DNA of 64,000 nucleotides from Actinomycetota bacterium (lineage in GTDB: Bacteria > Actinomycetota > Acidimicrobiia > IMCC26256 > VFJJ01): positions 2,224 to 66,223 of the forward strand of contig VFJJ01000045.1 of the NCBI GenBank assembly GCA_009886115.1. Reading direction: 5' to 3'. The notes beneath the pieces are model-generated. The model saw only the letters and a list, made by a program, of their open reading frames with translations. It ran no database searches and had not been told where the DNA came from. This document shows, piece by piece, positions 45,172-62,852 of the stretch (within the stretch, counting starts at the first letter, position 1; each line of letters opens with the position of its first letter). The translations under genes and the position numbers were made by a program.

Positions 45172-45264
45172 GGAGGGATGACCGAGTCGCCGAAGGTGAT
45201 CGCCTGCTAAGCGATTGTGGGCCCTCAAAGTCCACCGAGGGTTCAAATCCCTCTCCCTCCGCCA
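45172..45264 (+). tRNA. tRNA-Ser (anticodon GCU), long variable arm, encoded CCA
   Basis: Acceptor GGAGGGA/TCCCTCC, anticodon stem ATCGC/GCGAT with loop CTGCTAA, T-arm GAGGG-TTCAAAT-CCCTC, discriminator G and then CCA. Folded by eye. Confidence 0.9.
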
Positions 45265-45265
45265 C

Positions 45266-45293
45266 CGAAGGCCCGCCGCGAGGCGGGCCTTCG
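45266..45293 (+). terminator. 12-bp GC-rich hairpin directly after tRNA-Ser
   Basis: CGAAGGCCCGCC GCGA GGCGGGCCTTCG followed by TCGTC. Confidence 0.6.
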
Positions 45294-45310
45294 TCGTCTC
45301 TGGCCCGTCG

Positions 45311-46129
45311 TCACGACAGCGCGATCGGATCGGTGGTGGGCTGGTCGGAGCCTCCCGGAGGCTCGATCGTGACCGCGTAGGTACCGGCGGGATCGGTGAC
45401 CTCGAACTCGCTGATCCCGGGTGACGCGCCCAGCACGTCGAGCGAGATGGGCTCCGAACCGCTGCTGCCGTCGCCATTGCCACCTCCATCGGCGGGCGGG
45501 ATCCGCCAGAGCTGGTACGTCCCGTCGGCGAGTCGGGGCAGATCGTCGCTCACCACGTACCCGTGACCCTCGGCCCGCACGACGATCCGCATCGCGACGG
45601 CGCCGTCGGGGCCAGCGAGCGCGAGCTGACGGGCGTCGGGGTCGAGCATCGCGGCGATGGCCTCCTCGGCGAGCTCCTGTGACGCGCTGATCTCGCCCAC
45701 GCGATCGTCGAGGCGGATCTCGGTCACGGCGAACCCGATGGCCACAGCCGCCACGATCGAGGCGGCGATCCCGGCGGTCTTCCATGTGATCAGGGCACGG
45801 CGCCCGTCTCCCGGGTGGGTTCGCACCCAGCGCCGGGTCGTGCCGTCGAGGTGACGAGGCGGGCGCCTGAACTCGAGGACCGGTGCGCTCGCCGTGTCGG
45901 GAGGAGTCTCGATGGACGTGGCGATCCGCTCCCACAGCCCCTCAGGGGCGGCGGTCCCGGTCGAGGCCATCAAGGCCGCGACCTCGCGGTACTCCTCGAC
46001 CTCGGCCCGGGCCCGGGGGCTCTCCCGCAGATACGACTCGATGCGCAGGACCTCGTCGGCGTCGACGGCGTCGAGCGCGTAGGCGCCGAGGAGCTCGTCG
46101 AGCTCGTGGGTGTCGGGGCTCCAGGTCAT
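45311..46129 (-). CDS. anti-sigma factor (RskA-like, single-pass membrane)
   Basis: N-terminal anti-sigma helix pattern LLGAYALDAVDADEVLRIESYL....A..E...YRE, a central TM (AGIAASIVAAVAIGFAV) and an extracytoplasmic RskA-like domain. It is coupled to the sigma gene by an ATGA overlap. Confidence 0.8.
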   Translation of the reverse strand: MTWSPDTHELDELLGAYALDAVDADEVLRIESYLRESPRARAEVEEYREVAALMASTGTAAPEGLWERIATSIETPPDTASAPVLEFRRPPRHLDGTTRRWVRTHPGDGRRALITWKTAGIAASIVAAVAIGFAVTEIRLDDRVGEISASQELAEEAIAAMLDPDARQLALAGPDGAVAMRIVVRAEGHGYVVSDDLPRLADGTYQLWRIPPADGGGNGDGSSGSEPISLDVLGASPGISEFEVTDPAGTYAVTIEPPGGSDQPTTDPIALS

Positions 46130-46701
46130 GCCGGCACCGCGCCTGCCTCGACGAGCGCCTCGCGCAAACGGCGCATTCCCAGACGGATACGGCTCTTGAC
46201 CGTGCCCTCGGGTTGGCCGAGGATCGCCGCCACGTCCCGATAGGTGTGCCCCCCGAAGTACGCCAGCTCGATGGCCTGGCGCTCGCCGTCGCTCAAACCC
46301 GCGAGTGCCGCCCGCACCTGTTCGGCGAGCGCGAGGTCCCAGATCTCCTGCTCGAGGTCGTAACCAGCTTCAGCAGCTTGGCGGGTGGCCCTCTCCTCCC
46401 TGAGGCGTCGTGAGCTCTCGGAACGGATCATGTCGACGGCCCGTCCGTGGGTCTGGGCGAGCAGGAACGACCGCAGCTGGCCCCGCTCGGGATCGAAACG
46501 CTCGGGATGGCTCCACAGCCTGACGAAGACCTCTTGCACGACATCTTCGGCCATGGTCCTCTCCCGCAGAACCCGGACGGCGAGTGACATCACCGCACCG
46601 GCGTGACGCCGGTACACCTCGGCCAACGCTTCCTGGTGCCACCGCCCGATCGCCACCACGAGGGTGGCGTCGCTCGCCTGGTGCCAGTCGTCCCGGGTCA
46701 T
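46126..46701 (-). CDS. ECF-type RNA polymerase sigma factor (SigK-like)
   Basis: Region 2 is YRRHAGAVMSLAVRVL....AEDVVQEVFVRLW. Region 4 is YFGGHTYRDVAAILGQPEGTVKSRIRLGMRRLR. Confidence 0.88.
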   Translation of the reverse strand: MTRDDWHQASDATLVVAIGRWHQEALAEVYRRHAGAVMSLAVRVLRERTMAEDVVQEVFVRLWSHPERFDPERGQLRSFLLAQTHGRAVDMIRSESSRRLREERATRQAAEAGYDLEQEIWDLALAEQVRAALAGLSDGERQAIELAYFGGHTYRDVAAILGQPEGTVKSRIRLGMRRLREALVEAGAVPA

Positions 46702-48277: not shown

Positions 48278-49114
48278 ATGCATCGTCGTGGAGATCTCGT
48301 CGAGTTCCTCCGGGCTCGCCGCGCCGTCGTGTCGCCGGCCGACGTGGGACTCGTGGGTGGGGCGCGGCGGCGAACCCCGGGGTTGCGACGCGAGGAGGTG
48401 GCGCTCCTCGCCGGAGTGTCGATCAGTTGGTACACCTGGTTGGAGCAGGGACGACCTATCAACGCCTCGGTGGACGTGCTCGATGCGCTGGCCCGGGTGC
48501 TCCGACTCGATGCCGTCGAGCGTGAGCACCTGATGGCCCTGGCCGGGCATCCCGTACGTCGGGCCGTCTCGCCCGGCGGCGGGCAGGTGCCCGATGCGTT
48601 GCAGGTCCTGCTGGCCGGGCTCGACCCGAGCCCGGCGTACGTCCTGGGCCCGCATTGGGATTTCCTGGCCTGGAACTCGTCGCACGACCGCTTGTTCCCG
48701 ACGCTGCGGGCGCTGCCGCTGCCTGAGCGCAACCTCGTGTGGATCGTCTTCGCCAACCCCGAGGCCCGGGCCCTGATCGTCGACTGGGAACCCGAGGCGC
48801 GCAGGGTCCTCTCGCAGTTCCGGGCCGACACCGTCCCGTACCGCGACGATCCCGCGGTTCTGGCTCTCGTCGCGCGCCTGCAGGAGGCTTCGTCGGAGTT
48901 CGCCGCCTGGTGGCCCCGCCACGACGTCGCCGGCAGCGAGCCCCGCCTGCGGCGATTCGCTCATCCCGAGGCCGGTCTCCTCGTGTTCGAGCACCTCCAG
49001 CTCGTCCCCGCCGGGGCACCCGACCTCCGGGTCACCGTCCACCTCCCCATCCCCGACGACGACTCCCTCGCCCGCCTGGCCGCCGTTGCCGCTGCTGGTC
49101 CCGCCGGCCGGTGA
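48278..49114 (+). CDS. MmyB-like helix-turn-helix transcriptional regulator
   Basis: LRREEVALLAGVSISWYTWLEQGR (XRE HTH) followed by an MmyB-like ligand domain (P.YVLGPHWDFLAWN). It is divergent from the aminotransferase gene. Confidence 0.8.
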   Translation: MHRRGDLVEFLRARRAVVSPADVGLVGGARRRTPGLRREEVALLAGVSISWYTWLEQGRPINASVDVLDALARVLRLDAVEREHLMALAGHPVRRAVSPGGGQVPDALQVLLAGLDPSPAYVLGPHWDFLAWNSSHDRLFPTLRALPLPERNLVWIVFANPEARALIVDWEPEARRVLSQFRADTVPYRDDPAVLALVARLQEASSEFAAWWPRHDVAGSEPRLRRFAHPEAGLLVFEHLQLVPAGAPDLRVTVHLPIPDDDSLARLAAVAAAGPAGR

Positions 49115-49175
49115 TTCTCGCCCCGGTTTTCGGTCGGTCACACCGAATCGCGGTCGTGTACGCTCTGCGCCGCCT

Positions 49176-49248
49176 GCGCTCGTAGCTCAACGGATAGAGC
49201 ATCTGACTACGGATCAGAAGGTTGGGGGTTCGAGTCCCTCCGAGCGCG
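49176..49248 (+). tRNA. tRNA-Arg (anticodon ACG), no encoded CCA
   Basis: Acceptor GCGCTCG/CGAGCGC, D-arm GCTC-AACGGATA-GAGC, anticodon stem TCTGA/TCAGA with loop CTACGGA, T-arm GGGGG-TTCGAGT-CCCTC, discriminator G. Folded by eye. Confidence 0.9.
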
Positions 49249-49250
49249 CT
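49207..49250 (+). repeat. attL core: 44-bp direct repeat covering the tRNA-Arg anticodon loop to its 3' end
   Basis: CTACGGATCAGAAGGTTGGGGGTTCGAGTCCCTCCGAGCGCGCT is identical at 49207-49250 and 61508-61551, compared base by base. A further shared AAGTCCAGGT lies 4 nt downstream of both copies. Confidence 0.9.
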
Positions 49251-49307
49251 ACACAAGTCCAGGTCAGAGAGCTGTTGGAGGCTCTCGCTGGATGGTGTCA
49301 CACCTCT

Positions 49308-49341
49308 GTGAGAAGATTCTGAGAAGATCCCGTCTTCTCAC
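49308..49341 (+). promoter_or_regulatory. candidate integrase arm-type binding sites (P' arm): GAGAAGA motif twice direct and once inverted
   Basis: GTGAGAAGATTCTGAGAAGATCCCGTCTTCTCAC. The first 25 nt recur at 61359-61383 with one mismatch. Confidence 0.45.
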
Positions 49342-49359
49342 GACTCGGGGGTGGCGCTG

Positions 49360-50514
49360 ATGCCCAAGTTCCAGGGCGTGTACCAGGACCGCCGCGGGGG
49401 CTGGTACTTCAAGGCGTCGTCGCACAAGGACCCGCTCACCGGTCGCTGGCACCAGATCACCCGGCGCGGGTTCATCACGGCCGCCGACGCTTCGCGGGCC
49501 CGTGCCTCGTTCGTGGCCGAGTTGGAGGCGTCGCCACCTGCGGCCGCGCTCGCGGGCTTGACGGTCGCCGAGCTCGTCGACGCGTACCTCGATGACGCCT
49601 CGTCTGGTGGCCTCCTCTCGGCCAAGACCCTGTTCGACTACCGGCACTACGCCACCCACTACATCGGCCCGTACCTCGGGACGAAGCTGGTGCGTGATCT
49701 CGACGCCGAGACGATCGCCGCATGGCAGCGAGCGCTCACCAAGGGCGGCGGGGCCAAGACCGGCAAGAGCCTCTCGGCCAACACCGTCCGCATCGCCCGG
49801 GCGCCGCTGGCCGGGGCGCTCAAGTACGCGGTGAGCCGGGGGATCCTCAAGGCGAACCCGATGGTGTCGATCCCCCCGCCGCGCATTCCGAAGAAGATCC
49901 CGCAGCACTGGTCGCCCGAGCAGGCCCGGGAGTTCTTGGCCCTGCACGAGGGGGACCGGCTGTTCCCGGTGTGGGCGTTCCTGCTGGGATCGGGCCTGCG
50001 CATCGGCGAGCTGGTGTCGCTCCGCTGGCCCAACGTCGAGCTCGACCGCCGGCTCGTCCGCGTGCACGAGTTCGCCACCGTGCTCGGCTACGAGGTGGTG
50101 CGATCGGGCGGGAAGTCCCGAGATGCTGTCCGCACGGTCGACGTCGACGAGCACCTGGTGCGGGTGCTCCGCCAGCACCGCAAGACCCAAGCGGCTGAGG
50201 CGCTCGCGACCGCCGACTACGAGGCCAGCGACTACGTGTTCACGCGAGCTGGCGGCGGGCCGTATCACCCGCAGACGCTCTCGAAGGTTCTCGTTCGAGC
50301 GAGCGTCGCGGCGGGCCTTCCCCGGTTGACGGCCCACGGCCTGCGCCACACGAGCGCCACCCTGATGTTGGCGAGCGGAGTCGCACCCAAGGTCGCGGCC
50401 GAGCGCCTCGGCCACGCCGACACCACCCTGTTCTCGAACCTCTACAGCCACGTCACGCCCACCATGCAACGCGAAGCCGCCGAACGCATCGGCGACACGC
50501 TGTTCGGGGTCTGA
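49360..50514 (+). CDS. tyrosine-type site-specific integrase
   Basis: C-terminal catalytic region LRIGELVSLRW (Arg), HGLRHTSATLML (H-x-x-R), LGHADTTLFSNLYSHV (His/Tyr). ATG at 49360 (MPKFQGVY); the track start is the GTG at 49351. Confidence 0.92.
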   Translation: MPKFQGVYQDRRGGWYFKASSHKDPLTGRWHQITRRGFITAADASRARASFVAELEASPPAAALAGLTVAELVDAYLDDASSGGLLSAKTLFDYRHYATHYIGPYLGTKLVRDLDAETIAAWQRALTKGGGAKTGKSLSANTVRIARAPLAGALKYAVSRGILKANPMVSIPPPRIPKKIPQHWSPEQAREFLALHEGDRLFPVWAFLLGSGLRIGELVSLRWPNVELDRRLVRVHEFATVLGYEVVRSGGKSRDAVRTVDVDEHLVRVLRQHRKTQAAEALATADYEASDYVFTRAGGGPYHPQTLSKVLVRASVAAGLPRLTAHGLRHTSATLMLASGVAPKVAAERLGHADTTLFSNLYSHVTPTMQREAAERIGDTLFGV

Positions 50515-50516
50515 CG

Positions 50517-51671
50517 ATGGCTGCCCAACGAGTCCGCGTCGAGGCCCCGGTTGCGCTGTACGAATGGGCGATCGAACGGTCGCGCGTCGATCGTGAGGGC
50601 TTGGCGCGCCGATTCCCAAAGCTGAGGGACTGGTTGGCGGGCGAGGCCCCTCCGACCCTCAAGCAGCTCGAAGCGTTCGCTCGGGCGACGCACACGCCGA
50701 TCGGATTCTTCTTCCTCACCGAGCCGCCGGTCGAGCCCATGCCGATACCGGACTTCCGCACGATCGGCGACCGCACCGTCGCGCGGCCGAGCGCCGACCT
50801 GCTCGACACCATCTACCAGTGCCAGCAACGCCAGGAGTGGTTCCACGACTACGCCCAGGCAAACCGCTTCGACCCGGTGCCCTTCGTTGCGTCGTGCACG
50901 CTCGACTCCACGGTTGCCGAAGCTGCGGCGCATATGCGAGAGGTGTTGTCGTTCAGCGTCGATGAGCGTGGCTCGAGCTGGGGTGACGCATTCGCTCGGC
51001 TTCGTGAGCACGCCGAGGAAGTTGGCGTGCTCGTGATGGTCAACGGTGTCGTCGGGTCGAACACCCATCGCAAGCTCGACCCCGATGAGTTCCGAGGCTT
51101 CGCGTTGGTCGATCCCTTGGCCCCCTTGGTATTCGTCAACGGGGCCGACACGCGGGCCGCGCAGATCTTCACCCTGGCCCACGAGCTGGCCCACCTCTGG
51201 CTCGGCGAGAGTGCGCTCTCCGACGTGGCTCTCGATGTGGAGAGCACCAACGCGACTGAACGGTGGTGCAACCAGGTCGCGGCCGAGCTTCTGGTTCCGC
51301 TCGTCGATCTGCGCGACCAGTTCGACACTGGACGAGACCTGACCGAGGAGCTCGACCGGCTGGCTCGGCGTTTCCGCGCCAGCACGCTCGTCGTCCTTCG
51401 CCGCGTGCAGGAAGCGGGCTACCTCAGTTGGCCGGCCTACCGAGCGGCGTACACGGCCGAGCGCCAACGAGTGCTCGGCCTGATGGGTGACGGTGGCAGC
51501 GGCGGGAACTTCTACAACACCCAGCCAGTCCGGGTGAGCAAGCTCTTCGCCCGATCCGTGATCGCCAGCACCCTCGAAGGCCACACGCTCTACCGCGACG
51601 CGCTCGACATGCTCGGGTTCAAGAAGATCTCGACCTTCAACGAGCTGGCCGGCCGTCTCGGTGTCGCGTGA
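50517..51671 (+). CDS. ImmA/IrrE-family zinc metallopeptidase with an N-terminal HTH-like domain
   Basis: HExxH in FTLAHELAHLWLGES. The N-terminal region is ..LKQLEAFARATHTPIGFFFL, an XRE-like pattern. It starts 3 nt after the integrase stop, and its own stop overlaps the next gene (51668-51671). Confidence 0.8.
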   Translation: MAAQRVRVEAPVALYEWAIERSRVDREGLARRFPKLRDWLAGEAPPTLKQLEAFARATHTPIGFFFLTEPPVEPMPIPDFRTIGDRTVARPSADLLDTIYQCQQRQEWFHDYAQANRFDPVPFVASCTLDSTVAEAAAHMREVLSFSVDERGSSWGDAFARLREHAEEVGVLVMVNGVVGSNTHRKLDPDEFRGFALVDPLAPLVFVNGADTRAAQIFTLAHELAHLWLGESALSDVALDVESTNATERWCNQVAAELLVPLVDLRDQFDTGRDLTEELDRLARRFRASTLVVLRRVQEAGYLSWPAYRAAYTAERQRVLGLMGDGGSGGNFYNTQPVRVSKLFARSVIASTLEGHTLYRDALDMLGFKKISTFNELAGRLGVA

Positions 51672-52165
51672 TGGCGTACCTGCTCGATGCGAACGTGTTC
51701 ATCCAGGCCAAGAACCTCCATTACGGCTTCGACTTCTGCCCAGCGTTCTGGGACTGGATCGAGCAGGAGAACGCCGGCGGTCGCGTGCTCAGCATCGACC
51801 GGGTGCGCGACGAGCTGATCGGTGGCGACGACGAGCTGGCCGCCTGGGCGGCGGACCGGGCCGGGTTCTTCGTCGAGGCCGACCCCGCGATCATCGCGAG
51901 CCTGCAGGCAGTCAGCCGGTGGGCGAACGGTGCCCGCTACGAGCCGGCGGCGATCGCGACCTTTCTCCAGGTCGCCGACTATTACCTCGTTGCCAGCGCG
52001 CTGGCCCATGAGCACGTGGTCGTCACCCACGAGGTCGTCGCTCACTCCACCAAGAAGATCAAGATCCCGAACGTCTGCATCGCCCTCGGCGTCGGCTGCA
52101 TCACGCCCTACGAGATGCTCCGCAGAGAGCGTGCCCGGTTCGTCCTGGGTCCGACGGCGGCTTGA
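51668..52165 (+). CDS. DUF4411-family PIN-like protein
   Basis: The N-terminus YLLDANVFIQAKNLHYGFDFCPAFWDWI matches the DUF4411 signature from memory. There is a 4-nt overlap with the ImmA gene. Confidence 0.7.
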   Translation: MMAYLLDANVFIQAKNLHYGFDFCPAFWDWIEQENAGGRVLSIDRVRDELIGGDDELAAWAADRAGFFVEADPAIIASLQAVSRWANGARYEPAAIATFLQVADYYLVASALAHEHVVVTHEVVAHSTKKIKIPNVCIALGVGCITPYEMLRRERARFVLGPTAA

Positions 52166-52393
52166 TCACGCGCCGCGCGGGGACTGGCAAGGTTCGATCC
52201 GATGCTCATCGATCCACTGCACGAGCTCACCGGGGTCGAAGCGTACGAAGTGACCTACCTTCACGTACGGGATCCGCTTCTCGGCCACGAGCCGCCGCAC
52301 GTGCCGCAACGAGACGCCCAGGTGCTCAGCCGCGGACGACATGTCGATGAGCGTCGGCAGAGATGCGGCCGCAGCGACCGGCTGAACCAACAT
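52166..52393 (-). CDS. excisionase-family helix-turn-helix DNA-binding protein
   Basis: AAEHLGVSLRHVRRLVAEKRIPYVKVGHFVRFDPGELVQWI is the typical Xis/MerR-like winged HTH. Its stop directly abuts the DUF4411 stop. Confidence 0.8.
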   Translation of the reverse strand: MLVQPVAAAASLPTLIDMSSAAEHLGVSLRHVRRLVAEKRIPYVKVGHFVRFDPGELVQWIDEHRIEPCQSPRGA

Positions 52394-52742
52394 GTCCTAC
52401 AAGGGACACTCCGTGGCTGCCGATGTGACAAGGAACGACCAGTAGGTGAGGCCAGCTTGGTGGCGAAGCCGCTGGCGAGGACCGGTAGGTGGGCCATACT
52501 GTCGCCGTGCGGCGACGGCGCAGGCGACCATCGGCACCACTGCCGACCACGTTTTCACGGCCACGGAACGTGGCGGCTGGAGCCCGACCGTCATCTGGAG
52601 GTCCGCAGGACCTGCAGATGTGTCTCGACGTCTTCGGTGGGAGCATTAGGTGTGGCGTTCATCACGTGCCGTGGGATCGGATGGCCGTTAGCGCTGTCTT
52701 CGGTGACTAGTTGCTTCTGAGTGCGAGATAGAGGGACGTGAC

Positions 52743-54293
52743 GTGAAGAGTGATGACCTGGCCGAGGTTCGGCGGACCTTGTGGAAGGCGGCTGACGAGC
52801 TCCGGGCGAACTCCACGCTCACACCGGCGGATTACCGGAGCCCGGTGCTCGGGTTGATCTTCCTCGCCTACGCCGAGCACCGCTTCGAGGCCGTCCGGGC
52901 CGACGTCGAGGCCGGTGCCACCGCTCGCAACCCAGTGTCGCCCGACAACTACCGCGCCCGATCGGTGCTGTTCGTACCCGACGAGGCACGGCTGTCGGGC
53001 CTCGTCGACCTCCCCGAGGGCGAGAACCTCGGAGCCGCGGTCGACGCCGCCATGAAGGCCGTCGAGGCCGCCAACCCCGAGCTCCGCGACGTTCTGCCGC
53101 GCGGCTATCAGCGCCTCGAGCGCTCGACGCTCACGGAGTTACTCCGGCTTTTCTCCCCGCTGCCCCGCACCCTGTCGGGCGACGCCTTCGGGTTGATCTA
53201 CGAGGACTTCCTGTCCAACTTCGCCATGGCCGAGGGTCGCCTGGGGGGAGAGTTCTTCACCCCGTACTCCATCGTCCGTCTCATCGTGGAGATCATCGAG
53301 CCGTACCACGGCAAGGTCTATGACCCGGCGTGCGGGTCGGGCGGCATGTTCGTGCAGTGCGCCAAGTTCGTGGAGCGCCACGCCGGCTCGGCCACCCAGG
53401 AGCTGTCCGTCTACGGCCAAGAGCAGAAGGAGGTCACCGTCCCGCTGGCCAAGATGAACCTCGCCCTCCACGGTCTGTCGGGCGACATCCGCCTGGCCAA
53501 CAGCTACTACGAGAGTCTCCACGATGCCGTCGGCCGGTTCGACTTCGTCATGGCCAACCCGCCGTTCAACGTGAACGGTGTCGACAAGGACAAGCTCGCC
53601 GGCGATCCGCGGTTCCCGTTCGGCCTCCCCAGGACCGACAACGGCAACTACCTCTGGATCCAGCAGTTCTACGCCGCCTTGAACGACGCCGGCCGCGCCG
53701 GCTTCGTCATGGCCAACTCGGCGGGCGACGCCGGCCACTCCGAGAAGGAGATCCGTCGCAAGCTCGTCGAGTCCGGCGCCGTCGACGTCATGGTGGCCAT
53801 CGGGACCAATTTCTTCTACACCGTCACCCTCCCGGTGACCCTCTGGCTCCTCGACAAGGGCAAGGCCGGCACGGATCGCGAGGACACGGTGCTGTTCATC
53901 GACGCCCGCCACACGTACCGCCAGATCGACCGCGCCCACCGCGACTTCCTTCCGGAGCAGATCGAGCTGCTGGCCAACGTCGTCCGTCTCTACCGTGGCG
54001 AGGACGTCACGACCGTCGATGGCAGCATCGCCCTGTTGAAGGAGCGGTTCCCCGACGGGACCTACGCCGACGTTCCGGGCTTCTGCAAAGTGGCCACTCG
54101 GGCCGAGATCGAGGCGCAAGGATGGAGCCTCAACCCCGGGCGCTACACCGGCACCGCAGCGGCCGACGCCGACGACGAGGACTTCACCGAGAAGCTCGAG
54201 AGCCTCTACGAGGAGTTCACGCGTCTCAGCAACGAAGCCGACACCCTCCGCGCCAAGGTCGATGCTGCCATCACAGGGGTCTTGAGCGAATGA
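52743..54293 (+). CDS. hsdM: type I restriction-modification system DNA methyltransferase subunit
   Basis: N-terminal HsdM domain LWKAADELR......YR.PVLGLIFL, AdoMet motif VYDPACGSGGMF, catalytic FVMANPPFN. GTG start at 52743. Confidence 0.93.
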   Translation: MKSDDLAEVRRTLWKAADELRANSTLTPADYRSPVLGLIFLAYAEHRFEAVRADVEAGATARNPVSPDNYRARSVLFVPDEARLSGLVDLPEGENLGAAVDAAMKAVEAANPELRDVLPRGYQRLERSTLTELLRLFSPLPRTLSGDAFGLIYEDFLSNFAMAEGRLGGEFFTPYSIVRLIVEIIEPYHGKVYDPACGSGGMFVQCAKFVERHAGSATQELSVYGQEQKEVTVPLAKMNLALHGLSGDIRLANSYYESLHDAVGRFDFVMANPPFNVNGVDKDKLAGDPRFPFGLPRTDNGNYLWIQQFYAALNDAGRAGFVMANSAGDAGHSEKEIRRKLVESGAVDVMVAIGTNFFYTVTLPVTLWLLDKGKAGTDREDTVLFIDARHTYRQIDRAHRDFLPEQIELLANVVRLYRGEDVTTVDGSIALLKERFPDGTYADVPGFCKVATRAEIEAQGWSLNPGRYTGTAAADADDEDFTEKLESLYEEFTRLSNEADTLRAKVDAAITGVLSE

Positions 54294-55573
54294 GCGAGTG
54301 GCGGGACGTCGTGCTCGGCGACCTGTGCGAGCGAGTCACGGTAGGGCACGTAGGGAGGATGTCCGATCGGTACGTAGATGATGGAGTGCCCTTCCTCCGA
54401 TCTCAGAACATCAAGCCGTTCGTGATCGATCGCAACGGCATGCTTCGGGTAGACGAGGACTTCCATCGGAAGCTCGCCAAGTCGAGGCTCGCCGCCGGAG
54501 ACGTAGTCGTCGTTCGCACGGGCTATCCGGGAACCGCAGCCGTGGTCCCATCCGACCTCGATGGCTCGAACTGCGCGGACCTTGTGGTCATCACCCCAGG
54601 CGAAGATCTCAACCCACACCTACTCGCCGCAGTCTTCAACTCGAGTTGGGGGCGTTCGGCAGTTGGCGGCCACCTGGTCGGTGCGGCTCAACAGCACTTC
54701 AACATCGGCTCAGCCAAGATGCTGCGCCTCCGTCTCCCCTCAAGGCACGAGCAGGACCAGATCGCCGTCGTTCTGTGCGCCCTCCACGATCTGATCGAGA
54801 ACAATCGGCGGCGGGTTGAGGTGCTGGAGGAGATGGCGCGGGCCATCTACCGGGAGTGGTTCGTCCATTTCCGGTACCCGGGCCACGAGGACGTCCCCCT
54901 CGTCGACTCCCCCCTCGGCCCCATCCCCGACGGCTGGCAGATTCGGCGCCTCGATGAGTTCGCGTCGCTCGTTCGTGGACGGTCGTACCGCAAGCACGAA
55001 CTCGTCGACGTCGGTGGTCGCCCCTTCGTGAACCTGAAGTGCATGATGCGCGGGGGAGGCTTTCGGCGGGACGGCCTGAAGCGCTACGACGGGAAGTTCA
55101 CCGAAGCACAGCTTGTGAACCACGGCGATGTCGTACTTGCGGTTACCGACCTCACCCAAGGGCGGGAGATCCTGGCTCGGGCAACACTCGTGCCGCGACT
55201 ACCCGAGCCGGGCGTGATCTCGCTCGACGTAGCGCGCATCGTCCCCGACGAGCCAGCAGATCGACTGTGGTTGTTCGCAGTACTCCGATGGTCGGACTTC
55301 GCCGACCGCGTCAAGGAGTTCGCCAACGGCTCGACGGTCCTCCACCTTTCTCCGGACCATGTGGCGGCCGGCCAGGTCCTATGGCCGCCGGGAGACCTGC
55401 GAGCCTCACTTGCCGCGGCGCTCGACGCGGCGCTTGCGCTCGTGGATGAGCTGCTCGACGGGTCCGATCAACTCACCGGGCTCCGAGACCTCCTCCTTCC
55501 AAAGCTCGTGACCGGGCAGATCGATGTTTCGCATCTAGACCTCGATGCGTTGACCGAGGCGGCGGTGGGGTGA
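54290..55573 (+). CDS. hsdS: type I restriction-modification system specificity subunit
   Basis: Two target-recognition halves separated by a conserved helix (LIENNRRRVEVLEEMARAIYREWFVHFRYPG) and ending with LRDLLLPKLVTGQIDV. ATGA overlap with hsdM. Confidence 0.9.
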   Translation: MSEWRDVVLGDLCERVTVGHVGRMSDRYVDDGVPFLRSQNIKPFVIDRNGMLRVDEDFHRKLAKSRLAAGDVVVVRTGYPGTAAVVPSDLDGSNCADLVVITPGEDLNPHLLAAVFNSSWGRSAVGGHLVGAAQQHFNIGSAKMLRLRLPSRHEQDQIAVVLCALHDLIENNRRRVEVLEEMARAIYREWFVHFRYPGHEDVPLVDSPLGPIPDGWQIRRLDEFASLVRGRSYRKHELVDVGGRPFVNLKCMMRGGGFRRDGLKRYDGKFTEAQLVNHGDVVLAVTDLTQGREILARATLVPRLPEPGVISLDVARIVPDEPADRLWLFAVLRWSDFADRVKEFANGSTVLHLSPDHVAAGQVLWPPGDLRASLAAALDAALALVDELLDGSDQLTGLRDLLLPKLVTGQIDVSHLDLDALTEAAVG

Positions 55574-58500
55574 ACCCACCGGGGCCGTATTCGGAGTCGG
55601 GGCTGGTCGAGGAGCCGGCGCTCGAACTGCTCGCAGAACTCGGCTGGGAGGTCGTCAACGCCTGGAAGGAGTCGTTCGGCCCGGCGGGCACGCTCGGACG
55701 CGACTCGATGCACGAGGTCGTCCTCGTCCACCGTCTCCGAGATGCGATCCGGGTCCTGAACCCCTCCGTTCCGGACCAGATCCGCGAGGAGGGGCTCCAG
55801 GCCGTCACGAAGACGCGGTCGGCGATGGATCGGGTGCGCGCGAACCGCGAGGTGCACGCTTTGCTGCGGGACGGCTACCGCGCCGAGTGGACCGACGATC
55901 AGGGCGGCAAGGCCTACGCCACCGTCCGTTTCGTCGACTTCTCGGACTCGACGAACAACGACTGGCTGGCCGCGTCGCAGGTGTGGTTCGCGAGCGACAT
56001 GTACCGCCGCCGCACCGATGTGGTCCTGTTCGTGAACGGTATCCCGCTGGTGCTGGCCGAGTTCAAGGAGCCGAACCGGAAGGCCAAGGCGGCGTTCGAC
56101 GAGAACATCACCGACTACCGCGACACCATTCCCGACCTGTTCGTCCCCAACGGATTCGTGATCTGTTCCAATGGATCCGAAGCGAAGGTAGGCCCCACCT
56201 TCGCGTCATGGGAGTACTTCGGGGACTGGAAGGTCATCGACGCTGACGGCACCCGTGGTGTCGTCGCGTTGGAGACGGCCATCCAGGGCACCTGCGCCCA
56301 TGACCACCTGCTCGACCTCGTCGAGAACTTCACCGCGTTCATCGAGCGGCCGGGCGGGCTGATCAAGGTCGTGGCTCGCAACCACCAGTTCCTCGGCGTG
56401 AACGCGGCGATCGAGAACCTGCACCGGGTGCGGGCCGCCGGCGAGAAGCGCCTCGGCGTGTTCTGGCACACCCAGGGGTCGGGCAAGAGCCTGTCGATGC
56501 TGTGGTTCACCCAGAAGGTGCTGAGGCGAGTCCCGGGTGCCTGGACGTTCGTCATGGTGACCGATCGCACCGAGCTCGACATCCAGCTCCACGGCGAGTT
56601 CGCCGACGCCGGCGCGATCCCCGCCGAAGCCACCGTGCACGCAACGTCGACCGCTCACCTCCGCGAGCTGCTAGCCGCCGACCATCGCTACGTGTTCACG
56701 CTGATCCACAAGTTCCGCATCGACACCCGGGCCGGGGAGACGACCATGCCGGTGCTGTCGGACCGGTCCGACGTGATCGTGATCACCGATGAAGCTCACC
56801 GCAGCCAGTACGACACGTTAGCGCTGAATATGCGCCAGGCGCTCCCGAACGCTGCGTTTATGGGCTTCACCGGCACGCCGCTCATGTCGGGCGAGGAACT
56901 GACCCGCCAGCAGTTCGGTGACTACGTCACGGTCTACAACTTCCGCGACGCCATCGAGGACGGCTCAACCGTCCCGCTCTACTACGACAACCGGACCCCG
57001 GAGCTCCAACTCGTCAACGAGGACTTCTCCGAGGAACTGACCGCCCTGCTGGAGCAGGCCGAGCTCGACGAGGACGCCGAGGGTCAGCTCGCCCGCCGGT
57101 TCGGTCGGGAGTACACCCTCCTCACCCGCCCCGAGCGCCTGCGCACCATCGCCCGGGACCTAGTGGCGCACTTCGTGGGCCGTGGCTTTACCGGCAAGGC
57201 CATGTACGTCGGGGTCGACAAAGCGGCCGCGGTTCGCATGTACGGCTACGTGCAGGAGGCCTGGGCCGAGCACCGGGCCGAGCTCCAAGCCGCACACGAC
57301 GCCCTCCCGGAGCTGGAGCGGCCATGGCTGGCCAGCCGGCTGGCCCTGATGGACTCCACCGACATGGCGGTGGTCGTGTCACAGGGCCAGAACGAGATCG
57401 CCCAACTCGACGCCAAGGGCCTCGACATCCGCCCGCACCGCAAGCGGATGAACGACGAGGACCTGGCCGAGAGGTTCAAGGCCGCCGACGACCCGTTGCG
57501 GATCGTCTTCGTGTGTGCCATGTGGATGACCGGATTCGACGCCCCGAGCGTGTCGACGATCTACCTCGACCGCCCGATGCGCAACCACACGTTGATGCAG
57601 ACCATCGCCCGAGCGAACCGGGTGTTCCCCGAGAAGGACAACGGCCTGATCGTCGACTACATCGGCGTGTTCCGGAACCTCGAGGCCGCGCTGGCCATCT
57701 ACGGCTCGGCCAACGCCGAGGCCGGCGTGGACACCCCGATCCAACCCGTCGACGCACTTGTCGTCGCCCTCGACGAGCAGATCGAGGTCACCGTCGAGCT
57801 GTGCGCGGCGGCCGGTGTCGACCTTGCGGCGTTGCGAGACGCCACCGGGTTCGAGCACATCGCATTGCGTGACGCTGCCGTCGAGGCGCTGCTGGCCGAT
57901 GACGATCAGCGCGTGGCGTTCCTGGCCGCGGCTCGCCAGGTCCGCAAGCTGTTCAAGGCCCTCCTCCCCGACCCAGCCGCTGCCGCCCAGATGCGGACCG
58001 TGGCCGCGATCCGGGTGCTGGCCGAGCGCCTCCTCGACCTGGCCCGGCCCCCAGCCGCCGACCTCGACGAGCTCGCCGACGCCGTCGACGAATTGCTCGA
58101 CCGATCCGTCGGTGCGGAGGAGTACGTGATCCGCGCCGCAGCCGAGGGGAGCGAGCCCGAGGCGCTCATCGACCTGTCCCGGATCGACTTCGATGCCCTT
58201 GCCGCTCGTTTCGCCGGCCGCAAGCGCGCTGAGACCGATCGGTTGGCGGCCCTGCTCAAGCAACGGGCGGTCGCTGCCGCGACCCGCAATCCGACCCGCT
58301 ACGACCTCGTCGAGCGGATCGAGCAGCTCATCGCGGAGTACAACGCAGGCAGCCTCAACATCGACGAGTACCTCCGGCGCCTGATCGAGCTGTCGCAGTC
58401 ACTGACCGACGAAGAGCAACGAGCGGTCCTCGAGGGCCTCACCGAGGCCGAGCTGGCGATCTTCGACCTGCTCACCAAGCCCGACCCGGTGCTCAGCGAC

Positions 58501-59403
58501 ACCGAACGCACGGTGGTGAAGGCGAGCGCCAAACGCCTCCTCGCCCATCTCCACGACAAGCTCGTCCTGGACTGGCGACGCAAGGCGGCGACGACGGCCG
58601 ACGTGCGAGTGGCGATCCGCCGACTTCTCGATGAGGACCTGCCGGCAGATCCGTACCCGCCGGAGGTGTTCGACACCAAGGTCCAGGCCGTGTTCGACCA
58701 CATCACCTCGGCCTACGGCGACGACGGACGCAGCGTGTACGAGGGCATCTCGGTCGCACCTGCCAGGCCGGCGGGCGGCGTGGGGACGCTTCCGGCCGGG
58801 GCGCTCACCACGTCGGCCCTCACCGAGGAGGTCGTCGAGAAACTCCGTACCGACGCCGAGTTCGTCGCCCTCGTCGCTGAGAAGCTCGGGCTGGTCGGCA
58901 AGCCCGAGCTGCGGACCATCGAGGAGTTGATCGCCAACGACGAGGACTACGCCGTCGAGTTCAAGTCCACCGCCCGTTGGGACCTCCGCGAGAACCAACC
59001 GAGCAAGGCAATCGAGGACGCCATCGTCAAGACCGTGGCCGGCTTCCTCAACACCGACGGCGGGACGCTACTGATCGGGATCGGACCCGACCGCTCAGTC
59101 GTGGGACTGGGCCACGACTACGAACGGGTAAAGCCCAAGAACGGCGACGGCTTCGTCAACTGGCTGACCACCCACCTCGTCCACGCCCTGGGCCACCCGC
59201 CCGTCACCCGGGCCCGCGCCCGCATCGCGATTCACGCGGGCGCAGAGGTCTGCCGTGTCGACGTGGCCGCCTCGCCCGTCCCGGTGCGGGCGAAGACCAG
59301 CAAGGAGGACGGCGTCTTCTACGTCCGGCTCAACAACTCGACGAGAGCGCTGCCGGAGGACGAGGCCGAGGCTTACTGCTCCGAGCACTGGGCTGAACCA
59401 TGA
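55570..59403 (+). CDS. hsdR: type I restriction endonuclease subunit R fused to a C-terminal AlbA_2/Schlafen-like domain
   Basis: N-terminus SESGLVEEPALELLAELGW, helicase motifs WHTQGSGKS (motif I), VIVITDEAHRSQY (DEAH), FMGFTGTP, MQTIARANR. The C-terminal roughly 160 aa, AVEFKST.....I.KTVAGFLNTDGGTLLIGIG.D.SVVGL....FYVRLNNSTRAL, match the AlbA_2 pattern. At 1277 aa the protein is about 200 aa longer than the typical HsdR length I remember. GTGA overlap with hsdS. Confidence 0.88.
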   Translation: MNPPGPYSESGLVEEPALELLAELGWEVVNAWKESFGPAGTLGRDSMHEVVLVHRLRDAIRVLNPSVPDQIREEGLQAVTKTRSAMDRVRANREVHALLRDGYRAEWTDDQGGKAYATVRFVDFSDSTNNDWLAASQVWFASDMYRRRTDVVLFVNGIPLVLAEFKEPNRKAKAAFDENITDYRDTIPDLFVPNGFVICSNGSEAKVGPTFASWEYFGDWKVIDADGTRGVVALETAIQGTCAHDHLLDLVENFTAFIERPGGLIKVVARNHQFLGVNAAIENLHRVRAAGEKRLGVFWHTQGSGKSLSMLWFTQKVLRRVPGAWTFVMVTDRTELDIQLHGEFADAGAIPAEATVHATSTAHLRELLAADHRYVFTLIHKFRIDTRAGETTMPVLSDRSDVIVITDEAHRSQYDTLALNMRQALPNAAFMGFTGTPLMSGEELTRQQFGDYVTVYNFRDAIEDGSTVPLYYDNRTPELQLVNEDFSEELTALLEQAELDEDAEGQLARRFGREYTLLTRPERLRTIARDLVAHFVGRGFTGKAMYVGVDKAAAVRMYGYVQEAWAEHRAELQAAHDALPELERPWLASRLALMDSTDMAVVVSQGQNEIAQLDAKGLDIRPHRKRMNDEDLAERFKAADDPLRIVFVCAMWMTGFDAPSVSTIYLDRPMRNHTLMQTIARANRVFPEKDNGLIVDYIGVFRNLEAALAIYGSANAEAGVDTPIQPVDALVVALDEQIEVTVELCAAAGVDLAALRDATGFEHIALRDAAVEALLADDDQRVAFLAAARQVRKLFKALLPDPAAAAQMRTVAAIRVLAERLLDLARPPAADLDELADAVDELLDRSVGAEEYVIRAAAEGSEPEALIDLSRIDFDALAARFAGRKRAETDRLAALLKQRAVAAATRNPTRYDLVERIEQLIAEYNAGSLNIDEYLRRLIELSQSLTDEEQRAVLEGLTEAELAIFDLLTKPDPVLSDTERTVVKASAKRLLAHLHDKLVLDWRRKAATTADVRVAIRRLLDEDLPADPYPPEVFDTKVQAVFDHITSAYGDDGRSVYEGISVAPARPAGGVGTLPAGALTTSALTEEVVEKLRTDAEFVALVAEKLGLVGKPELRTIEELIANDEDYAVEFKSTARWDLRENQPSKAIEDAIVKTVAGFLNTDGGTLLIGIGPDRSVVGLGHDYERVKPKNGDGFVNWLTTHLVHALGHPPVTRARARIAIHAGAEVCRVDVAASPVPVRAKTSKEDGVFYVRLNNSTRALPEDEAEAYCSEHWAEP

Positions 59404-60071
59404 CGACGCCGCAATTCGGACTGCTGTTCCACTTCACCCACGTCGACAACCTGCCGGCGATCCTCGAAGCGGGCGCACTGTTGAGCGACACGATCGTGGA
59501 GGGACACGGGCTCCTGACGAACGAGGCGGGCGACCCGGCGATCAAGCAGAGGCGCCGCGGTCAGCCGGTGACCTGCTCGCGCGGAGGTTGCGTCGGGGAC
59601 TACGTGCCCTTCTACTTCGCGGCACGCTCGCCGATGATGTACGTCCTCTGGAGGGGGAGCGTGCCGTCGTTCACCGGCGACCACCGTGATCTCGTCTACT
59701 TCGTGGGCCACGTCGATCAGCTGGTGGGCGCGCCGGTGGACTTCGCAATCAGCGATCGGAACGCGGCGAAGGCGTATGCCGCGTTCAGCGACGACCCTCG
59801 CGTGCTCGGTGACCTGGCGGCCCCGGTACCCCAGTCGACGTTCATCGACTGGTCGTTGATGAAGGAGGCAATGTGGAAGGACACGCCGGACGATCCCGAG
59901 CGAATGGAGCGACGGATGGCCGAGTTCCTCGTGCACGGCCAGGTGCCCCTGGAGCTGCTCACCGGAGTAGCCGCGCGGTCGGACGACCGGAAGGCTATGG
60001 TCGAACGCCTGTTCGTGGAGTCGGGGTGTGGGCTGCAGGTGGTCGTCCGGCCCGACTGGTACTACTCGTAG
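59400..60071 (+). CDS. darT: DarT, DNA ADP-ribosyltransferase toxin (DUF4433)
   Basis: LFHFTHVDNLPAIL, GDYVPFYFAARSPMMY, FAISDRNA, RMAEFLVHGQVP (catalytic Glu context), C-terminal RPDWYY. The ATG overlaps the hsdR stop (ATGA at 59400-59403). Confidence 0.88.
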   Translation: MTTPQFGLLFHFTHVDNLPAILEAGALLSDTIVEGHGLLTNEAGDPAIKQRRRGQPVTCSRGGCVGDYVPFYFAARSPMMYVLWRGSVPSFTGDHRDLVYFVGHVDQLVGAPVDFAISDRNAAKAYAAFSDDPRVLGDLAAPVPQSTFIDWSLMKEAMWKDTPDDPERMERRMAEFLVHGQVPLELLTGVAARSDDRKAMVERLFVESGCGLQVVVRPDWYYS

Positions 60072-60084
60072 GATCGGAGTTGAG

Positions 60085-61185
60085 ATGATCCAGGAAGCGC
60101 ACGGGAACCTGCTCGACGCCAAGGCGGACGCCTTGGTCAACACCGTCAACACAGTAGGGGTCATGGGCAAGGGGATCGCCCTGCAGTTCAAGCGCGCATT
60201 CCCCGAGAACTACAAGGCCTACAAGCGCGCCTGCGACCAGGGGGCCGTCGAGCTCGGCCAGATGTTCATCTGGGATGCCGGCGCACTCGCGACCGATGGC
60301 CCGCGGTACATCATCAACTTCCCGACCAAGAAGCACTGGCGGTCGAAGTCGAAGCTGTCCGACATCCGTTCCGGACTCGACGACCTTGTCCGCCAGCTCA
60401 AGGACCTGTCGATCAGCAGCGTCGCCGTTCCGCCGCTGGGCTGCGGCCACGGTGGGCTTCGTTGGGAGGACGTGCGCCCGGTCATCGAGCGCGCCTTCGA
60501 CCAGGTCACCGACGTGCAGGTCCTCCTCTACCCGCCGGAGGGTGCACCCGCATCCGTCGACCAAGCCGTTCGCACCGACCGGCCCAAGATGACCTACGGC
60601 CGAGCGGCTGTGGTCGCCGTCATGGAGCGCTATCTCCCCTTCGCAGTCGACGTCACAGCCGTCGACGTCCAGAAGCTGATGTACTTCATGCAGGAGGCAG
60701 GCGAGCCGCTCAAGCTCGACTTCGCAAAGGGCAGGTACGGCCCGTACGCCGACAACCTTCGGCATGTGCTCCAGGGGATGGAGGGCCACTACATCCGAGG
60801 GACCGGGGATGGCTCGGCGAAGGCACTGGACTCGATCCCGTTCGAGATACTCGACGGTGCGTCCGCGGAGGCGGCCGCTGTGCTCGAAGCGCGCGTTGGC
60901 TCCAACGCCCACCTCGAGGTTGTCGCTCAGCTCATCGAGGGATTCGAGTCGACCTACGGACTCGAACTGCTCGCCACCGTGCACTGGGCATCCTTGCGTG
61001 ACGACGACGAGCACCGCCGGGCGGAGCCGCTAAGGCTCGATCAGGCCGAGCGCGTCGTCGGTTCCTGGAACCGGCGCAAGGAGCGCCTGTTCACGCCGAC
61101 GCACATCGCCAAGGCCTACGAGCGACTCCACGGCCAGGGATGGCTCGATCCACCCGTGCCCACCGGGTTGCTCACCGGCTCCTGA
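60085..61185 (+). CDS. darG: DarG, macrodomain DNA ADP-ribosyl glycohydrolase antitoxin
   Basis: N-terminal macrodomain GNLLDAKADALVNTVNTVGVMGKGIALQFK....Y, VPPLGCGHGGL, then a C-terminal DarT-binding-type domain. Start at ATG 60085 within track ORF 60028..61185. Confidence 0.88.
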   Translation: MIQEAHGNLLDAKADALVNTVNTVGVMGKGIALQFKRAFPENYKAYKRACDQGAVELGQMFIWDAGALATDGPRYIINFPTKKHWRSKSKLSDIRSGLDDLVRQLKDLSISSVAVPPLGCGHGGLRWEDVRPVIERAFDQVTDVQVLLYPPEGAPASVDQAVRTDRPKMTYGRAAVVAVMERYLPFAVDVTAVDVQKLMYFMQEAGEPLKLDFAKGRYGPYADNLRHVLQGMEGHYIRGTGDGSAKALDSIPFEILDGASAEAAAVLEARVGSNAHLEVVAQLIEGFESTYGLELLATVHWASLRDDDEHRRAEPLRLDQAERVVGSWNRRKERLFTPTHIAKAYERLHGQGWLDPPVPTGLLTGS

Positions 61186-61358: not shown

Positions 61359-61383
61359 GTGAGAAGATGCTGAGAAGATCCCG
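61359..61383 (+). promoter_or_regulatory. candidate integrase arm-type binding sites (P arm)
   Basis: GTGAGAAGATGCTGAGAAGATCCC matches 49308-49332 at 24 of 25 nt. It lies about 125 nt inside attR. Confidence 0.45.
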
Positions 61384-61507: not shown

Positions 61508-61551
61508 CTACGGATCAGAAGGTTGGGGGTTCGAGTCCCTCCGAGCGCGCT
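61508..61551 (+). repeat. attR core: second copy of the 44-bp tRNA-Arg 3' segment
   Basis: Identical to 49207-49250. Confidence 0.9.
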
Positions 61552-61673
61552 GAAGAAGTCCAGGTGGGAGTGTTGTTGGTCCGTTCCCCTGGGCGTCTGG
61601 GAGTCCGTTCTGCATCCTGGTGAGATCCAAAGTTCCGCAGAAGCGCTGCTGAGCGGATCTCACGGGAGGTCGG

Positions 61674-62078
61674 GTGCCCAGGTTCGCGGCGGGCAGCGAG
61701 ACAGCACCGTCGCTCTCCCACAGGTCACCGAGCCTGCCGACCCTCCGATGACATCCGGAACGATCGGATTGGAGATGCGCCAGAGGCCGGCATGCTCGCG
61801 AACCTCGACAGGATACGAACTCGGTGAATCGCCGGGTGGCGCCTCAGGCCGCCAAGACGCTGTTCGACCACCGGCACTACGTCACCCACTCCATTGGCCC
61901 ACACATCTCGGGGCGAAATCCTGCGCGACCTCGACGCCATCGCCTCGTGGCAGCGGGTGCTTGCGCCCCGTTCGGCCACGCCGACGCGACGCTCCTGTCG
62001 ACCCTCTACAGCCGCGTCACCCCGACTATGCGGCGAGAAGCCGCCGATCGCATCGGCCACGCGCTGTTCGGAGGCTGA
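61674..62078 (+). pseudogene. decayed tyrosine-integrase gene (frameshifts plus a large internal deletion), paralogous to 49360..50514
   Basis: Nucleotide similarity to the intact gene was read by eye. GTGCCCAGGTTC parallels ATGCCCAAGTTC. GCCAAGACGCTGTTCGACCACCGGCACTAC parallels GCCAAGACCCTGTTCGACTACCGGCACTAC. The 3' end ...GGCCACGCCGAC...CTCTACAGCC.CGTCAC.CC.AC.ATGC..CG.GAAGCCGCCGA.CGCATCGGC..CACGCTGTTCGG.G..TGA is retained, but the whole catalytic middle is missing. Confidence 0.8.
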
Positions 62079-62139
62079 GTATCAGCGACGCAGCTCGATT
62101 CATGGTTGCAGATATTGCAGTCGGTGGTACTCTTCGGCT

Positions 62140-62785: not shown

Positions 62786-62852
62786 TACCAGTGCCAGCAA
62801 CGCCAGGAGTGGTTCCACGATTACGCCCAGGCCAACCGCTTCGACCCGGTGC
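62786..62852 (+). repeat. 67-nt fragment of an ImmA/IrrE gene (65 of 67 nt identical to 50814-50880)
   Basis: TACCAGTGCCAGCAACGCCAGGAGTGGTTCCACGA(T/C)TACGCCCAGGC(C/A)AACCGCTTCGACCCGGTGC, compared by eye. Confidence 0.85.

Follow-up and report, generated by a model that had tools for sequence, protein, structure and literature searches.

In a 64,000-nucleotide (nt) stretch of DNA from an Actinomycetota bacterium (assembly GCA_009886115.1, contig VFJJ01000045.1, positions 2,224 to 66,223; referred to here as the window, in whose coordinates all positions are given), two overlapping forward-strand genes encode a 384-amino acid (aa) protein with a Peptidase_M78 domain (50517-51671) and a 165-aa protein of the DUF4411 family (51668-52165). 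We find that this pair belongs to a known and recently characterised kind, as a distant relative of VapBC52 of Mycobacterium tuberculosis. It is probably a type II toxin-antitoxin (TA) or abortive-infection module of the VapBC52 type, in which a PIN tRNase is kept in check by a helix-turn-helix (HTH)-M78 antitoxin and is released when that antitoxin cleaves itself. Both window proteins match partner chains of one and the same complex, PDB 9vzy (M. tuberculosis VapB52/VapC52, or Rv2515c/Rv2514c). The assignment draws directly on gene order and overlap, family membership, residue conservation and pairing across species, and in addition on modelled folds. An earlier sequence-only reading of this DNA had described an ImmA/IrrE (M78) gene with a HELAH motif that overlaps a DUF4411 gene behind an integrase, and the open reading frames (ORFs) are exactly so arranged; its suggestion of a protease-controlled toxin in a TA- or abortive-infection-like pair is upheld by the VapBC52 homology and by the conservation of the two genes as neighbours.

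The same reading had held that the pairing has no experimentally defined function, which is outdated. In 2009, fusions of COG2856 and Xre domains were predicted to form three-component TA systems with PIN or RelE toxins, Rv2515c being an example of the fusion (PMC2701414), and in 2017 DUF4411 was classed as a PIN-like toxin adjoining HTH-DUF955 genes (PMC5499597). Toxicity of Rv2514c and rescue by Rv2515c were reported in 2019 (PMC6504116), and the structure and mechanism of VapBC52 appeared in Nucleic Acids Research in June 2026 (PDB 9vzy and 9vzz; PMC13273310). According to that study, VapC52 is a PIN tRNase whose D6A mutant is inactive, and VapB52 is a 46-kDa three-domain antitoxin which binds the toxin dimer in a 1:2 ratio; its N-terminal HTH domain is needed for binding and its C-terminal domain lies over the toxin active site. 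Single-stranded DNA (ssDNA) leads to a HExxH-dependent self-cleavage of VapB52 that removes the N-domain, and the authors proposed that the cut falls at a conserved 'FR' motif and that C229 acts as a 'cysteine switch' controlling the zinc site. Overexpressed VapC52 protected M. smegmatis from phage D29 (PMC13273310).

The toxin of the window, whose N-terminus reads MMAYLLDANVFIQAKN, matches the DUF4411 profile over its full length (PF14367, E value 3.5e-55, positions 1-159 of 159). Against the PDB it finds chain 9vzy_D with an E value of 1.6e-11 and chain 9vzz_A, named 'DUF4411 family protein', with about 1e-11. Its acidic tetrad consists of D7 (51686-51688), E49 (51812-51814), D104 (51977-51979) and E122 (52031-52033), all invariant in the close toxin subfamily. 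When 34 toxin representatives down to 39% identity were compared, D7 and E122 were still invariant and E49 and D104 were at least 90% conserved; the acidic PIN residues, which the sequence-only reading had singled out for checking, are thus conserved in the alignment and not lacking. The AlphaFold2 (AF2) model of the toxin has a predicted local distance difference test (pLDDT) score of 85.6, and the best Foldseek matches of this model were FitB, enterobacterial VapC, M. tuberculosis VapC11 and PAE2754, with template modelling (TM) scores of 0.55-0.68. The alignment of a hidden Markov model (HMM) of the toxin subfamily to PDB sequences did not extend to the N-terminal strand that bears the first catalytic Asp. 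That D7 is the counterpart of VapC52 D6 would instead follow from the full-length Pfam match and the predicted PIN fold.

The antitoxin carries its Peptidase_M78 domain (PF06114, E value 7.5e-17) at residues 167-297, with the HELAH motif at residues 222-226. As a single sequence it matches PDB 9vzy_A, deposited as 'HTH cro/C1-type domain-containing protein', with an E value of 1.1e-16, and a profile of its 46-member subfamily aligns with VapB52 over positions 7-347 of 382 (E value 3.6e-26). The zinc site of the M78 core, H222-E-L-A-H226 (51180-51194) together with the ligand E248 (51258-51260), aligns with the VapB52 zinc ligands H216, H220 and E245. Six residues are invariant within the subfamily (H222, E223, E248, C251, D79 and R81), and 45 of the 46 sequences have H226. 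The linker motif D79-F80-R81 (50751-50759) aligns with D-F-R of VapB52, the wider stretches being P-I-P-D79-F80-R81-T and R-D-F-R-R; position 80 is occupied by F in 17, L in 17, Y in 10 and M in 2 sequences. We also observed that Cys102 (50820-50822), in the motif Y-Q-C-Q-Q-R-Q-E-W, is invariant in all 46 members, the aligned residue of VapB52 being Ala.

The AF2 model of the antitoxin (pLDDT 86, predicted TM score 0.85) shows a five-helix N-domain of HTH type (about aa 1-70), an alpha/beta peptidase core and three C-terminal helices (51534-51668), with a Gly-rich flexible linker at aa 325-338 which is disordered in the model. The three-domain plan of VapB52 (HTH, M78 and helical C-terminal domain) is therefore present here, its C-terminal domain as a model prediction. 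The N-terminal 98 aa match no Pfam or NCBIfam HTH model, and the C-terminal 54 aa contain no Pfam domain; NCBIfam gave no match to the pair above its cut-off, the best being a weak sub-threshold hit to 'spr1629 family repressor/antitoxin'. The N-terminus had previously been called XRE-like. Domain databases do not bear this out, and it finds support in the profile match to the whole of VapB52, the five predicted helices and the XRE-HTH annotation that the Joint Genome Institute (JGI) gives to some homologues. Foldseek of the antitoxin model against the PDB returned CapP, IrrE, PprI-ssDNA and PrpR as best matches, and the VapB52 paper names the same four homologues for the middle domain of VapB52 (PMC13273310).

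Taken side by side, the two systems belong to the same two Pfam families, have their genes overlapping with the antitoxin first, and are of comparable sizes (384 and 165 aa in the window, 415 and 153 aa for VapBC52). They share the HExxH + Glu zinc site, D-[F]-R at the N-domain linker and the toxin acidic tetrad, as well as a Gly-rich linker followed by a helical C-terminal domain. They differ in that the window antitoxin has Ser235 in place of the switch Cys of VapB52 and Cys102 in place of its Ala. Unlike VapBC52, the window pair lies on a tRNA-Arg integrative island beside a type I restriction-modification (R-M) operon and DarTG, and the members of its subfamily, which come from many phyla, are 65-70% identical and often sit within type I R-M operons.

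The junction between the two genes reads GTGATG. From the GTG at 51668 the overlap is 4 nt, as had been noted from the sequence, and it shrinks to 1 nt if the ATG at 51671 is used, which is where an identical database protein (P0001, 164 aa) begins. We examined the 80 best genome loci, one per species, from Actinomycetota, Acidobacteriota, Pseudomonadota, Verrucomicrobiota, Chloroflexota, Bacillota, Nitrospirota, Planctomycetota, Gemmatimonadota, Omnitrophota and WOR-3 among others. In 78 of these species an M78 gene lies directly upstream of the DUF4411 gene with overlapping stop and start codons, so the two genes are conserved as neighbours elsewhere, a point that the sequence-only reading had left for checking. 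The 78 upstream M78 homologues are full-length (E values 1e-100 to 1e-172), and the remaining two loci have truncated M78 remnants. The adjacency is far above chance. Since the toxins of the 80 loci are 62-71% identical to the window toxin despite coming from so many phyla, the subfamily appears to have spread horizontally and widely. The DUF4411 toxin family as a whole comprises at least 7,952 clusters at 90% identity and 3,918 representatives at 50% identity (E values up to 1e-3), and at least 546 species genomes match the two peptide patterns used. One of the two remnant loci, from a Verrucomicrobiota genome (L074, 5861-5995), has its antitoxin gene reduced to the last 45 codons, which encode the C-terminal domain, next to an intact DUF4411 gene; this could be either a minimal antitoxin or a decaying locus.

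The conserved coupling also bears on which of the two proteins is the toxin. The metallopeptidase could be the toxic component and its fused HTH the antitoxin, with DUF4411 an unrelated neighbour, as was suggested for COG2856/Xre pairs (PMC3632139); PMC10538038 likewise treats a Zn-metalloproteinase/HTH-Xre pair of Brucella as a putative type II TA system. We consider this arrangement scarcely credible. In the M. tuberculosis homologues it is the DUF4411 protein that is toxic and the M78 protein that rescues, the pairing holds in 78 of 80 species with translational coupling, and the catalytic PIN residues are conserved. We have therefore rejected it on the toxicity of the M. tuberculosis DUF4411 partner and on the conserved, coupled pairing.

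On the model of VapBC52, the DUF4411 protein would be a metal-dependent PIN endoribonuclease that cuts tRNA in the anticodon or variable loop, whereupon growth stops. One HTH-M78 molecule would hold a toxin dimer, its N-terminal HTH domain binding the outer face of the dimer and its C-terminal helices lying over the active site. An infection or DNA-damage signal, ssDNA in the case of the M. tuberculosis protein, would turn on the M78 peptidase, which would then cut its own chain at [F/L/Y]-R in the N-domain linker (F80-R81 here) and so free the toxin. The tRNA target, the 1:2 stoichiometry and the ssDNA trigger in this scheme are inferred from M. tuberculosis VapBC52. The pair may act in addition as an addiction module for the 12.3-kb tRNA-Arg defence island that carries it. 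The genomic contexts of the related loci are of TA and defence type, comprising type I R-M, GmrSD, AbiEii, MNT/HEPN and plasmid TA clusters.

Several points weigh against this interpretation. For the window pair it rests on homology and prediction. The window toxin is distant from VapC52 (E value about 1e-11) and alignable with it over residues 23-146 only, and the window antitoxin has low identity to VapB52, their HMMER alignment ending before the C-terminal domain. The PDB library used for Foldseek ends in April 2026 and is without 9vzy and 9vzz, so that the structural matches are to older homologues and include no superposition on VapBC52. A scan of 49100-52800 found neither a promoter nor a terminator, the sigma-70 consensus being a poor model at 70% G+C. 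In the D29 experiment the toxin was overexpressed alone and the pair was not co-expressed (PMC13273310); even in the M. tuberculosis reference system, a native role in defence is putative. Activation by ssDNA is the weakest step of the proposed mechanism because the cysteine switch is absent: in an ungapped alignment the position of VapB52 C229 is Ser235 in the window protein, and the 46 subfamily members have Ser in 38 cases and Asp in 8. The missing residue bears on the proposed mechanism of activation and not on family membership. In the Ser235 subfamily the means of keeping the peptidase off, and possibly the trigger too, may differ from those of M. tuberculosis, and the invariant Cys102 or Asp236 might serve as a substitute switch.

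It had also been put forward from the sequence that the pair is the induction switch of a mobile island, in the manner of ImmA/ImmR, with M78 cleavage after DNA damage derepressing int and xis and DUF4411 as an accessory. ImmA-type M78 peptidases do act in this way in ICEBs1 (cited in PMC2701414), the window antitoxin has an HTH-like N-domain, and its gene stands in an apparent operon with the integrase gene, from which it is separated by 2 nt and which has an inverted repeat upstream (within 49309-49342). ImmA/ImmR of ICEBs1 and IrrE(PprI)/DdrO of Deinococcus share the M78/COG2856 HExxH core and a link to DNA damage with the window protein, and ImmA controls a mobile element. However, ImmA and IrrE act by cutting an XRE repressor that has a gene of its own, and they are not paired with a toxin, whereas in the window the HTH is fused to the peptidase and the partner is a PIN nuclease. 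Among the island ORFs of at least 50 aa (49.2-61.5 kb) we saw no separate XRE repressor gene of the ImmR type, and the sole other DNA-binding protein found among them is an HTH_17 protein of excisionase type. The M78 protein is always paired with DUF4411, mostly outside mobile-element cores; of 78 related loci only 6 have an integrase within 6 kb, whereas HsdR is the immediate downstream neighbour in 27 of 77; and only two weak matches were found in 50,697 phage records. The earlier idea of a protease that cleaves a separate repressor also parts from the characterised relative VapB52, which cleaves itself and neutralises a toxin. An induction switch is very unlikely on these grounds, and membership in the ImmA/ImmR class was rejected on the lack of a separate XRE repressor, the rarity of nearby integrases and the near-absence from phages.

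The element that carries the VapBC52-like pair is a 12.3-kb island integrated at a tRNA-Arg gene, with perfect 44-bp attachment (att) repeats and three defence or TA modules, namely the VapBC52-like pair, a type I R-M operon and DarTG. Its integration target is tRNA-Arg(ACG) (49176-49249, forward strand), identified using ARAGORN; this tRNA is also found beside the related islands L084 and L085. The attL core of 44 nt (49207-49250) lies at the 3' end of the tRNA gene and is identical in 44 of 44 positions to the attR core at 61508-61551, which is at the same time the attL of a second, decayed island; similarity around attR extends to 61579 (90% over 72 nt). The island is apparently mobile. Between attL and the integrase gene (49309-49342) the sequence contains two direct copies of GAGAAGAT and a 9-bp inverted repeat, GTGAGAAGA/TCTTCTCAC, with a 16-nt spacer. 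The block containing GAGAAGAT occurs inside both ends of the island (49309-49333 and 61359-61383, 24 of 25 positions identical), and the GTGAGAAGA-N16-TCTTCTCAC inverted repeat is found at the int side, just upstream of int. From their sequence, these repeats are possible arm-type Int sites or an operator.

The tyrosine integrase gene (49351-50514, forward strand; Pfam Phage_integrase, 3.3e-22, with Arm-DNA-bind_4) has its stop codon 2 nt before the antitoxin ATG. Its true start is probably the ATG at 49360, judging from relatives of 383-384 aa that have the same 2-nt gap. Since the genes are just 2 nt apart, int and the pair are probably co-transcribed on this element. Directly behind the toxin gene follows an HTH_17 gene of excisionase type on the reverse strand (52166-52393; PF12728, 1.3e-10), tail-to-tail with it and with zero spacer, a position that it keeps in the relatives L001 and L084-L085. 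The forward-strand type I R-M operon spans 52743-59403 and comprises, by Pfam, hsdM (52743-54293), hsdS (54290-55573) and hsdR (55570-59403). It is followed on the same strand by a pair of DarT and the macrodomain protein DarG (59400-61185), with darT at 59400-60071 (Pfam, 2.1e-55) and darG probably starting at 60085 and ending at 61185 (Macro, 1e-25). DarT is an ssDNA thymidine ADP-ribosyltransferase. We also observed that HsdR has a fused C-terminal SLFN_AlbA_2 domain (Schlafen/AlbA_2; PF04326, 2.1e-13) at residues 1125-1261, which is unusual for HsdR.

In the closest relatives, whose antitoxins are 91-92% identical, the layout recurs: int-M78-DUF4411-xis(-hsdMS...) lies at tRNA-Arg(ACG) in GCA_031362415.1, the closest related contig. 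A metagenome contig carries the int-M78-DUF4411-xis core in another chromosomal flank, and the gap between int and the M78 gene is 2 nt in all of these relatives. The earlier claim that the module moves together with elements of this family thus holds for the close relatives, at tRNA-Arg(ACG) in two different flanks. Upstream of the island, the window encodes tRNA-Ser(GCT), an RskA-type anti-sigma factor and an extracytoplasmic function (ECF) sigma factor (45172-46701). The same genes flank the island of GCA_031362415.1, which is without about 2.4 kb present in the window between the sigma factor gene and tRNA-Arg.

This layout raises the possibility that the pair serves mainly for addiction, stabilising the 12.3-kb island by post-segregational killing when it is excised or lost, with phage defence incidental. 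Such a role is compatible with a TA module, and we regard its being the principal one as possible, if doubtful. It fits a pair placed 2 nt behind int in an element with intact 44-bp att repeats, the recurrence of the int-M78-DUF4411-xis core at tRNA-Arg in different flanks, and the presence of DUF4411 in 35 plasmid records, including Sphingomonas pCADAB1, where the pair lies inside a TA gene cluster. It sits less easily with the small number of related loci that have an integrase nearby, with the dominance of R-M operons and defence genes among the contexts, and with a peptidase domain of sensor type, which exceeds the needs of plain addiction.

Compared with the published system, what is new is that in about one third of the related loci the pair interrupts a type I operon, lying between its hsdS and hsdR genes. 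By Pfam, the immediate downstream neighbour is HsdR (HSDR_N) in 27 of 77 loci, and the immediate upstream neighbour is HsdS (Methylase_S) in 23 of 74 and N6_Mtase in 3 more. In the embedded loci (L015, L018, L024, L043, L045, L052, L053, L063, L069, L072, L079 and L083 among them, the pair being at about 4.8-6.5 kb of each locus) the genes share one strand in the order hsdM-hsdS-[M78-DUF4411]-hsdR, and in many cases the stop codon of hsdS overlaps the start of the M78 gene (ATGA). Such loci come from many phyla and involve at least two different type I families; a RefSeq-annotated plasmid of Acetobacter vaccinii, for example, has HTH, hsdM, hsdS, ImmA/IrrE, DUF4411, Abi and hsdR in this order. 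The remaining contexts include GmrSD, AbiEii-type and MNT/HEPN genes. The R-M operon of the window itself is of the family in which the pair is most frequently found embedded, a family that contains it in Alphaproteobacteria (hsdM about 1e-93 to 1e-109, hsdR about 1e-126 to 1e-143).

These associations suggest a restriction-linked backup, in which the tRNase would be freed when restriction is under way or blocked, adding a layer to the TA mechanism. One possible route is that ssDNA fragments of restricted phage DNA activate the peptidase. There is a precedent in PrrC, an anticodon nuclease inside EcoprrI (PMC3632139). PrrC of the type Ic system EcoprrI is a latent tRNA-cutting enzyme located in or beside a type I R-M operon, as are about one third of the loci related to ours. 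However, it consists of a HEPN nuclease and an ABC-type NTPase held by the R-M complex without a dedicated antitoxin, and it has no kinship of sequence or fold with the window toxin; the latter is a single-domain PIN protein and has no HEPN or ABC-type NTPase domain. About two thirds of the loci, including the plasmid TA clusters, lack an adjoining type I R-M operon, and the M. tuberculosis locus has no reported R-M linkage. The window pair stands beside the R-M operon and is not embedded in it, an opposite-strand gene and a 350-nt gap intervening before hsdM. A shared defence island is no proof of interaction, and Matelska et al., in describing 'several cases' in which a PIN-like gene is coupled to type I R-M, did not single out DUF4411 and gave no evidence of interaction. 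We therefore think such a link improbable for the window pair. Much the same improbability attaches to the wider proposal that the subfamily is dedicated to type I restriction systems as their partner and works like a PrrC built on a PIN domain. Its protease-antitoxin would sense the consequences of restriction or anti-restriction and free a tRNase as a second line of defence, and its int-linked form might also gate the int operon so that stress triggers the toxin and mobilisation together.

Other known systems share single parts with the VapBC52-like pair. The best structural match of the antitoxin model is CapP (PDB 7t5t; Foldseek probability 1.00), from the CapH/CapP regulators of the cyclic-oligonucleotide-based antiphage signalling system (CBASS). 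PMC13273310 summarises reports that ssDNA activates CapP, an IrrE-type peptidase. CapP cuts a separate repressor, CapH, whereupon CBASS is induced, whereas the window antitoxin is paired with a toxin and has additional domains at its N- and C-terminal ends. The window locus contains neither CBASS genes nor CapH, and with a toxin partner in its place, membership in CapH/CapP was rejected. Canonical VapBC and FitAB systems share the PIN fold and acidic active site with the window toxin (FitB, VapC of Salmonella, Shigella and the F plasmid, and M. tuberculosis VapC11). Canonical VapB is a DNA-binding protein of about 8-13 kDa which is degraded by cellular proteases, in contrast to the window antitoxin of about 42 kDa with a peptidase of its own.

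Searches with the PADLOC models led to a similar result. The antitoxin matched capP best (1.4e-13), then RmrA, PDC-M69B and PD-Lambda-2_B, which are generic M78 models, and the toxin had zero matches. Rosmer (RmrT/RmrA) and PD-Lambda-2 have the M78 domain in common with the window protein (RmrA hits of 1.5e-10 to 5e-3, PD-Lambda-2_B 7e-6). Since the toxin matches no PADLOC model, neither system as PADLOC defines it was accepted, and the pair is no defence system catalogued there.

A second, decayed island follows in tandem after attR (61508-63100). It holds two integrase remnants (61851-61961 and 61972-62078) of 78-82% identity, from which an internal portion has been deleted, and an ORF that encodes an HTH_17 domain (61894-62523). 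A further ORF starts at 62520 with the PIN-like N-terminus VFVDANELF, has no Pfam match and is apparently cut off at about 62785. Where this ORF ends, and in a different frame, begins a fragment of the M78 antitoxin gene (62785-62852, forward strand; approximately codons 100-122, YQCQQRQEWFHDYAQANRFDPV), identical in 66 of 68 nt to 50813-50880, with the similarity lost abruptly on both sides. A fragment of a paralogous ImmA gene had been noted here before; it exists, with a length of 68 and not 67 nt. Its attribution to decay is the less likely, because the fragment is 97% identical to the window gene, as against 78-82% for the adjacent integrase remnants and only about 85% over at most 44 nt for other homologues. 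It looks more like the product of a recent recombination between tandem elements than of slow decay of an old paralogue.

For such genes the label 'ImmA/IrrE peptidase + DUF4411' can now be replaced by 'VapBC52-type TA / candidate abortive-infection system'. Two leads extend beyond the published system, the missing cysteine switch and the embedding in type I operons. The first implies that the trigger logic of the M. tuberculosis protease may not be universal, and the second suggests a possible PrrC-like coupling of restriction to tRNA-cleaving suicide. With three defence or TA modules in 12.3 kb, the compact island of this bacterium would be suitable material for experiments on both.

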